Assembly: GCF_964204645.1 (NCBI RefSeq)
Contig: NC_134025.1
Span: 15,624,001 to 15,688,000, forward strand
DNA from: Tubulanus polymorphus
Lineage: Eukaryota; Animalia; Nemertea
Length of the DNA stretch: 64,000 bases
Direction: 5' to 3'
Shown: positions 46,001 through 47,104 of the stretch, piece after piece
Numbering within the stretch: the first letter of the stretch is position 1
Layout of the letters: every line of letters begins with the position of its first letter
Position numbers and translations under genes: made by a program
The notes under the pieces: generated by a model
What the model was told of the DNA's origin: nothing
Seen by the model: the letters and a program-made list of their open reading frames with translations, nothing else
The model's database searches: none

Positions 46001-47104
46001 ATGGTAACTCAAGAAGATAAATATACTTATGTAGTACATTATAGAATGTTAAAGTTTTATCTAAAACAAGGAATGGTTCTAAAAAAAGTACATAGATATA
46101 TTTCATTTAGTCAATCTAAGTGGTTAGAAAAATATATAGATTTTAACACCAAACAGAGAACTGAAGCTAAAACTGATTTCGAGAAAGATTTCTTCAAGTT
46201 AATGAATAATGCATTCTATGGTAAGACTTGTGAAAATATTAGTTATAATGATATTGAGTTAGTTAGTAATGGTAAAAGAATTAGACATTTACAAGTATAT
46301 CCTAAGTTCATTGGTAACAGAATATTTGATGAAAATTTAGCCGCAGTTAAAATGAGAAGAACATCCATGAAATTTAATAAACCAATCTATGTTGGCGCTT
46401 CAGTTTTAGAATTATCAAAATTACTAATGTATGAATTCTATTATAATGTATTACAACCACTTTTTGGAGAAATACATATAGAAATATTATATTTTGATAC
46501 AGATGCTTACATATTAAAGATAAAAACTAATAACATAACTGATGATTTAAAAACATTAAAACATCATTTTGATTTCAGTAACTATCCTAGAAATCATGAA
46601 TTGTTTAGCAATGATAATAAAAAAGTTCCCGGTAAATTCAAAGATGAATTAGGTGGTGAAGAAATGATTGAATTCATCGGTATTAGATCTAAAATGTATT
46701 CATATAAAACTTAAGAACATGAAGCTAAAAAGTTAAAAGGAATAACCAAAAGTGTAGTAGAAAAGAATATTAATTTCAAAGATTACATCAATTGTATATT
46801 CAATGAAGAAGTTAGAAAACATAAGATGAAATGTTTAAGATCTGAAGATCATGAAATGTTTATTGAAGAAATTGAAAAGATAAGTCTAAACCCATTTGAT
46901 GGTAAAAGATATATTTTAGATGATGGAATTCATACAGTTGCTTATGGTTGCAATTTAGATGAATACTTAAAATTTAAAAGAGAAGAAACAAAAGAGAACG
47001 AGATAATGAAAAGAATTCTAACGTGTTCATCAAATTTTAATAAAAATATGTATTATAAATGGAGAGTAAACAAACACACAGTGAGAACAATAAATCATTT
47101 CTAG
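43011..47104 (+). pseudogene. polB: Protein-primed family B DNA polymerase, intein-free allele (frameshifts at ~44090 and ~44580, stop at 46712)
   Basis: Zn[55 protein letters not shown]; uninterrupted YFDTD. Confidence 0.93.

Follow-up and report, generated by a model that had tools for sequence, protein, structure and literature searches.

The window analysed here, 64 kb in length, contains two Polinton-type elements, in one of which (element A) the DNA polymerase gene is interrupted by an intein, and in the other of which (element B) the same site is uninterrupted. It is of interest to ask whether B offers an empty target to the intein of A, as had been suggested in an earlier note on this DNA, or is simply the usual state of such a gene. 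The 18-mer GAAATATTATATTTTGAT has exact matches at 25668-25685 in A and at 46481-46498 in B, and across the following bond B reads YFD|TDAY and A reads YFD|S...N|TDAY. The empty site had been placed correctly at 46498/46499, with its bond being the insertion point of the intein in A. It had also been called almost identical to the exteins of A, which is true of the 5' side (18 of 18 nt identical) and not of the 3' side (only 9 of 12); the sequence quoted for A as one stretch is in fact the two intein flanks joined, which are not contiguous there. Among the first ten codons 3' of the site, eight are silently different between A and B (p 0.002 in a binomial test with the rate of the whole gene), while the encoded peptides are the same from -8 to +11. 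The raised protein identity noticed around the site is borne out, with 0.92 in the 60 site-centred codons versus a median of 0.67. So is its reading as the homing site of the intein, since the bond is that of the pol-c allele in the available part of PMC549080. Table 1 collects the features of both elements.

Table 1. Coordinates of elements A and B and of their main features in the window.
Feature	Position	Strand	Remarks
Element A, truncated Polinton-like stretch (polymerase and one small ORF)	22091..28060		ends approximate, from GC drop, read depth and loose ends
A pPolB N-extein	22146..25685	+	PF03175, E 2e-17; premature stop 25536-25538
A intein, 1,076 nt	25686..26761	+	Ser1, terminal Asn, three frame changes
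A intein block B, TxDH	25912-25941	+	
A intein LAGLIDADG motifs	26098-26136 and 26453-26491	+	GFFMGDG and GFYAADG
A pPolB C-extein, Thr+1	26762..27217	+	first 30 codons B-like in amino acids
Element B, 18,314-bp Polinton	42370..60683		AGT..ACT ends; terminal inverted repeats ~81% alike (I14); 6-bp TSD GGGGTG
B protein-primed DNA polymerase B gene, broken	43011..47104	+	PF03175, E 3e-15
Endonuclease VII-like insert within B polymerase gene	inside 43011..47104	+	PF02945, E 3e-5
Empty pol-c intein site, pPolB motif C, element B	46481..46531	+	insertion bond 46498/46499, YFD|TDAY
B 415-aa ORF, candidate major capsid protein	52458..53705	+	by size and position only
B A32-like packaging ATPase (part)	54766..55242	-	PF04665, E 1e-10
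B retroviral-type integrase	55285..56139	-	rve, PF00665, E 8e-9

Element B is assigned to the Polintons by its inverted ends, 6-bp duplication, rve integrase and A32-like ATPase. With its protein-primed polymerase (pPolB) it thus carries pPolB, rve integrase and packaging ATPase in an element of the 15-20 kb class with TIRs and a 6-bp TSD, and in all of these the 18-kb B is like the Polintons/Mavericks (adintoviruses). Its polymerase gene is broken: the frame shifts near 44091 and again near 44579, and a stop lies at 46712-46714. The Pfam search of B gives no match for the major and minor capsid proteins or the maturation protease, and the single-sequence fold of the candidate capsid ORF has a pLDDT of only 29. 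Both ends of B (42369-42779 and 60496-60683) are fold-backs themselves (inverted repeats I16, I17 and I24), and the insertion target is one arm of a small palindromic element. Beside the right end, at 59621-60274 (-), lies a 217-aa ORF with CxxC pairs and HIDH..NLRPL, which has no Pfam match and by eye looks like a free-standing HNH endonuclease.

Element A is a 6-kb remnant, for which no second end is found in the window; its left end has no other copy there. Its insert is a decayed Ser/Asn LAGLIDADG intein of the pol-c allele, an assignment based on features and bond as in the Mimivirus PolB intein (PMC549080, in its available part), with splicing and cutting being predicted from the sequence. 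Frame changes near 25820, 26190 and 26380 leave its endonuclease frame not open. The penultimate His is missing (..AVN), as it is from the related P0128 and P0131, and the Pfam/NCBIfam intein and LAGLIDADG matches on A's pieces, including PF14528, are weak and below cut-off. PF14528 is found on the inteins of relatives, and the intein frame is open in P0121, P0126, P0128 and P0130; to the open-frame intein of P0128 that of A has 64% identity over 340 columns. Read runs X6, X1, X2 and X5 were placed on element A at 85% likeness; runs X1-X4 may come from the organism to which the window belongs. In X6, the depth is 128-261 in five intein bins, with a median of 386 in the exteins and 239-294 just downstream, so that the depth of the intein is between roughly one half and three quarters of that in its flanks, a ratio affected by reads of empty relatives and by the divergence of this copy. 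The depth pattern marks A as one of many copies in a family where the intein is common. Since reads often differ from A at its breaks, its lesions look largely private. No intein-skipping joints on A are present among the 15 of 113 read joints listed.

We then present an overall view of intein occupancy in Polinton polymerases. In a search unfiltered for length, 121 of 144 new proteins are of pPolB type, and 113 of these 121 are unbroken across the site, with the intein carried by three short fragments. The empty state is therefore the default among pPolB proteins and the empty site of B is unremarkable in itself, being alone of little importance. A count of 119 empty among 120 was discarded as biased, because its search range of 393-1,253 aa left out full-length occupied proteins. 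With the P0121 intein as query, the best 120 of 287 matches listed include 11 pPolB-type exteins, all having the intein at the same bond with the same ends, and the others listed are mostly of PF00136 with YGD|S...N|TDS. Related inteins lie on giant-virus contigs, and from these together with the PF00136 hosts we infer the label giant-virus-type. In an intein tree of 44 rows, including 32 of 36 non-Polinton inteins and rooted at the midpoint, the 12 pPolB inteins form one clade inside the others (SH-aLRT 100); since support for the sister group is weak and the rooting is by midpoint, the donor of the intein is unproven. Of the 32 non-Polinton inteins in this tree, 31 are 33-43% identical to those of Polintons. 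The queries P0128 and P0277 have no match on viral contigs, and a piece of the A intein finds 17 viral and 37 metagenome loci, with a pPolB match in none of the 54. A PDB sequence search with P0128 gives one weak match, PI-PkoII (E 4e-4). The named polymerase relatives are from spiders, insects, a mollusc, a crinoid and a hagfish, and one has dinoflagellate-style annotation. Together with the repeat-rich flanks and their reverse-transcriptase ORFs, these names make an animal the most likely host. Two Polinton-type polymerases of the same clade, P0004 and P0069, bear the source labels Bartonella sp. and Sulfurimonas sp., and probably represent eukaryotic or viral sequence binned with bacteria. 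Five further proteins (P0157, P0188, P0194, P0195 and P0221), which are not polymerases, have inteins of the same family at bonds resembling D|TD; the hosts are an ADP-ribosylglycohydrolase-family protein (PF03747), type II topoisomerases and a nuclease of XRN type.

On the exteins, occupancy is scattered. A tree of 68 hand-picked rows, in which 54 of the 55 comparison rows are confirmed empty, has 12 occupied rows and nine occupancy changes, eight of them forced by well-supported branches; a tree of 22 hand-picked rows has six occupied rows and six changes. Meanwhile the identities of inteins and exteins are correlated (r 0.95, Mantel p 0.0002; 28 pairs of eight proteins), which makes it likely that homing is local, among close relatives, and demonstrates no jump between distant lineages. 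Scattered occupancy and this correlation together fit one old invasion followed by homing among close relatives. The grouping of A with P0128 is rejected on the exteins (AU p 6e-5). Nor is there support for the A intein having jumped over a long distance from the P0128 lineage, since 63% intein versus 58% extein identity is the usual ratio. The splicing residues (Ser/Cys1, block B TxxH, terminal Asn and +1 Thr/Ser/Cys) are present in A and its relatives, and both acidic LAGLIDADG motifs in A and eight of the nine proteins checked. The inteins are as conserved as the exteins, which together with the kept acidic motifs fits selection for a working endonuclease.

As for A and B themselves, both polymerase genes lie in AT-rich stretches, and the alignment runs over 22383-25685/43215-46498 (73% at nucleotide level) and 26760-27211/46497-46948 (80%), with a clean gap of 1,076 nt, 25686-26761, present in A only. 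Over 1,220 aligned codons the two polymerases have 67% amino-acid and 75% nucleotide identity, which puts them in separate subfamilies and not in the close sister relationship that had been assumed. The N-side extein tree (22 rows) groups A with the empty P0277 and B with the empty P0282, and rejects an A+B clade (AU p 1e-4). A dip in synonymous divergence at the site, which the homing of the intein between A and B had been expected to leave, is absent (0.35 versus a median of 0.31). The four-fold sites are near saturation, with 0.52 observed versus 0.57 expected, so this silent-site test excludes recent conversion only. In short, A and B fall short of near identity, and their silent divergence is not lowered where the intein is inserted. 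Because the empty state is normal, the subfamilies are separate, both genes are broken, the A endonuclease is frameshifted and silent sites carry no sign of recent conversion, the proposal that A and B are a present substrate pair for homing is not supported; they are decayed members of two subfamilies, not recent donor and recipient.

The opposite reading, in which B is being, or has recently been, targeted by A's intein within the same host, we regard as quite unlikely. Repair by homologous recombination is improbable from a template of 25% nucleotide divergence, and this applies to A as a template for B; in addition, the A intein is frameshifted, the A polymerase has a stop, and the 3' codons differ at eight of ten with silent divergence not lowered. 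What speaks for this reading is that A and B lie in one host 20.8 kb apart, that their local identity excess tops 28 matched pairs, and that the reads show a multi-copy family with the intein common. Moreover, intein endonucleases can accept changed bases at every wobble position according to the available part of PMC3159444, and given the identical peptide from -8 to +11, B's site may, by analogy with such enzymes, be cuttable by the intein endonuclease.

The near-identical occupied and empty alleles are found elsewhere. Among the 15 of 136 members listed for the P0126 cluster, seven are full-length and occupied and five near-full-length and empty, with the alleles 94-98% identical to P0126. 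In this family, 12 of the 13 diagnostic residues in 1,191 positions (seven occupied versus four empty, with P0254 left out) fall at -7 to +44 of the site, and these 12 count as one tract and not as 12 events. In the P0131 cluster (15 of 121 members listed), the empty P0269 is 99% identical, and its 40+60 flanking residues are the same as in three occupied members. The tract at -7 to +44 is what co-conversion from a divergent donor would leave, to which escape mutations or blocked recombination could add. The near-identical pairs, the clustered differences and the patchy occupancy, all at protein level, support the intein homing between Polintons that the earlier note had put forward in general. 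At -4, -2, +4 and +8, the empty alleles P0255, P0256, P0258 and P0259 of the P0126 family have residues that are derived when compared with most outgroups, and these alleles may be taken as candidate escape alleles.

In the homing cycle of inteins, the protein splices out, its endonuclease cuts an empty site, and repair copies the intein together with its flanks into the cut allele. Accommodating the above, we consider it probable that the site of B is an ordinary empty form, and that the intein is Polinton-specific and likely maintained by homing among close copies. Entry into an ancestral Polinton polymerase would likely have happened once, from a giant-virus-type PolB. The intein of an intact copy would be spliced from the polymerase precursor through Ser1, Asn and Thr+1, restoring the polymerase; the endonuclease released in this way would cut motif-C sites that are empty, with repair from an occupied copy transferring the intein and about seven codons 5' and 45-55 codons 3'. 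The wider proposal, that a giant-virus-derived intein has long been resident in Polintons and is still homing among integrated copies in animal genomes, its endonuclease cutting and converting empty chromosomal copies, B-like ones included, so that a homing cycle would run inside an endogenous virus family of many copies, is put forward tentatively.

However, the trees also fit a single gain followed by many losses, and several of the derived P0126-family states are on the empty side. These two points weigh against the homing explanation, and leave room for a vertical relic, i.e. one old insertion with many losses and little ongoing homing, where the clustered differences would come from recombination blocked by the insert or from escape mutations in the empty alleles. 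For it are also the intein tree, which mirrors the extein tree, and the derived positions -4, -2, +4 and +8 of the empty alleles. Yet repeated precise loss would itself require empty templates and recombination, escape mutations make sense only with an active enzyme, and the endonuclease motifs persist in lineages no more than 40-48% alike, which is unlike neutral decay. We judge this relic reading, with its account of the clustered differences, to be unlikely as a whole.

Maintenance by homing among close copies, which we prefer, may have included an exchange of the site tract between the lineages of A and B long ago. The excess identity of A and B within +/-30 residues is +0.21, the top of 28 pairs at 60-80% overall identity, with a mean of +0.04 over all the other pairs. 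In the quartet of A, P0277, B and P0282, four sites at -15 to +55 support A+B versus one for the gene-wide grouping, and outside this tract 11 versus 66 (Fisher p 0.003 for inside against outside); the window was picked after the data were seen, and a three-way Fisher test gives p 0.002 for -15 to +60 and 0.17 for +/-60. All four cross-subfamily pairs of the quartet have a local excess of +0.15 to +0.21, being +0.20 for P0277-P0282. These figures suggest, tentatively, that the A and B lineages exchanged the site tract, which has the same extent as that of the P0126 family, long ago, in a direction that is unreadable. In another part of the gene, at residues -386 to -369 of the A polymerase, A sides with B at seven of seven informative sites (permutation 15/300), possibly by recombination unconnected with the intein.

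The likeness of A and B around the site may otherwise come from constraint on motif C together with general recombination between co-resident Polintons, independent of the intein, which we hold to be a serious though less probable account. Such a cause would explain why the excess is found in all four cross-subfamily pairs, and why a second A=B patch, equally strong (7/7 sites), occurs remote from the site; this patch, and the number of only four sites in the A/B tract, likewise count against the homing explanation. On the other side, other pairs at such distance have a mean excess only near +0.04, the A/B tract has the same 3' bias as that of the P0126 family, and GC3 is raised in A directly 3' of the site (9/30 in the first 30 codons of the C-extein versus 109/1,148). 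Constraint and recombination cover the A/B tract only, and can go together with homing among close copies.

Homing among close copies recalls the yeast VDE/PI-SceI cycle in its patchy occupancy, its occupied and empty alleles, its decayed copies and its flanking co-conversion. The difference is that the alleles here would be, in this analogy, copies of a multi-copy mobile element and not of a single-copy host gene. Since donor and target DNA must share a nucleus for homing to occur, the occupied and empty pairs directly measure recombination between Polinton copies. With the pol-c inteins (Mimivirus PolB and archaeal position III; PMC549080, in its available part), the Polinton intein shares the motif C bond xxD|TD with Thr+1, the Ser1, the block B Thr/His, the two LAGLIDADG motifs, the terminal Asn and a length of ~350 residues. 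It differs in that the host is the protein-primed polymerase (PF03175) of an integrating Polinton and not an RNA-primed PolB, that the Polinton inteins are a clade of their own, and that the copy of A is a pseudogene.

On the literature side, the available part of PMC11161782 describes HNH/VSR nuclease inserts in Polinton pPolB and suggests intein invasions as their origin. These are alike in having a nuclease domain inside pPolB, but no splicing domain is shown in that part, while here a full Hint and LAGLIDADG intein lies in the catalytic motif, at a position distinct also from the endonuclease VII insert of B. The word intein is missing from the main text of the Polinton surveys PMC8097293, PMC10748475 and PMC8502044. 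Genes of GIY-YIG and HNH type are treated in the available part of PMC12220804, and those of PMC3671162 and PMC5718144 hold nothing relevant to a pPolB intein; PMC4760082 does not mention the subject. In the full-text literature no report of such an intein in pPolB or Polintons was found, where supplements and most subscription papers are outside the scope and an earlier mention is possible. A homing intein family of Polinton polymerases is supported by these results and seems to have gone undescribed. Bacteria, archaea, unicellular eukaryotes and viruses are the sources of the inteins described in what is available of PMC5874633 and PMC549080, so the known range would be extended by a complete homing intein in the pPolB of elements that integrate in DNA most likely of an animal. 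It would also give a concrete case for the pPolB intein invasion guessed at in PMC11161782, as far as its available part goes, and a record of past contact between Polintons and giant viruses.

In addition, the flanks of the two elements are rich in repeats and have reverse-transcriptase ORFs. At 13228-21267, two RVT_1 ORFs stand head to head within a 2.1-kb perfect inverted repeat, accompanied by further 804-bp tandem copies, which looks like a very young retroelement arrangement.
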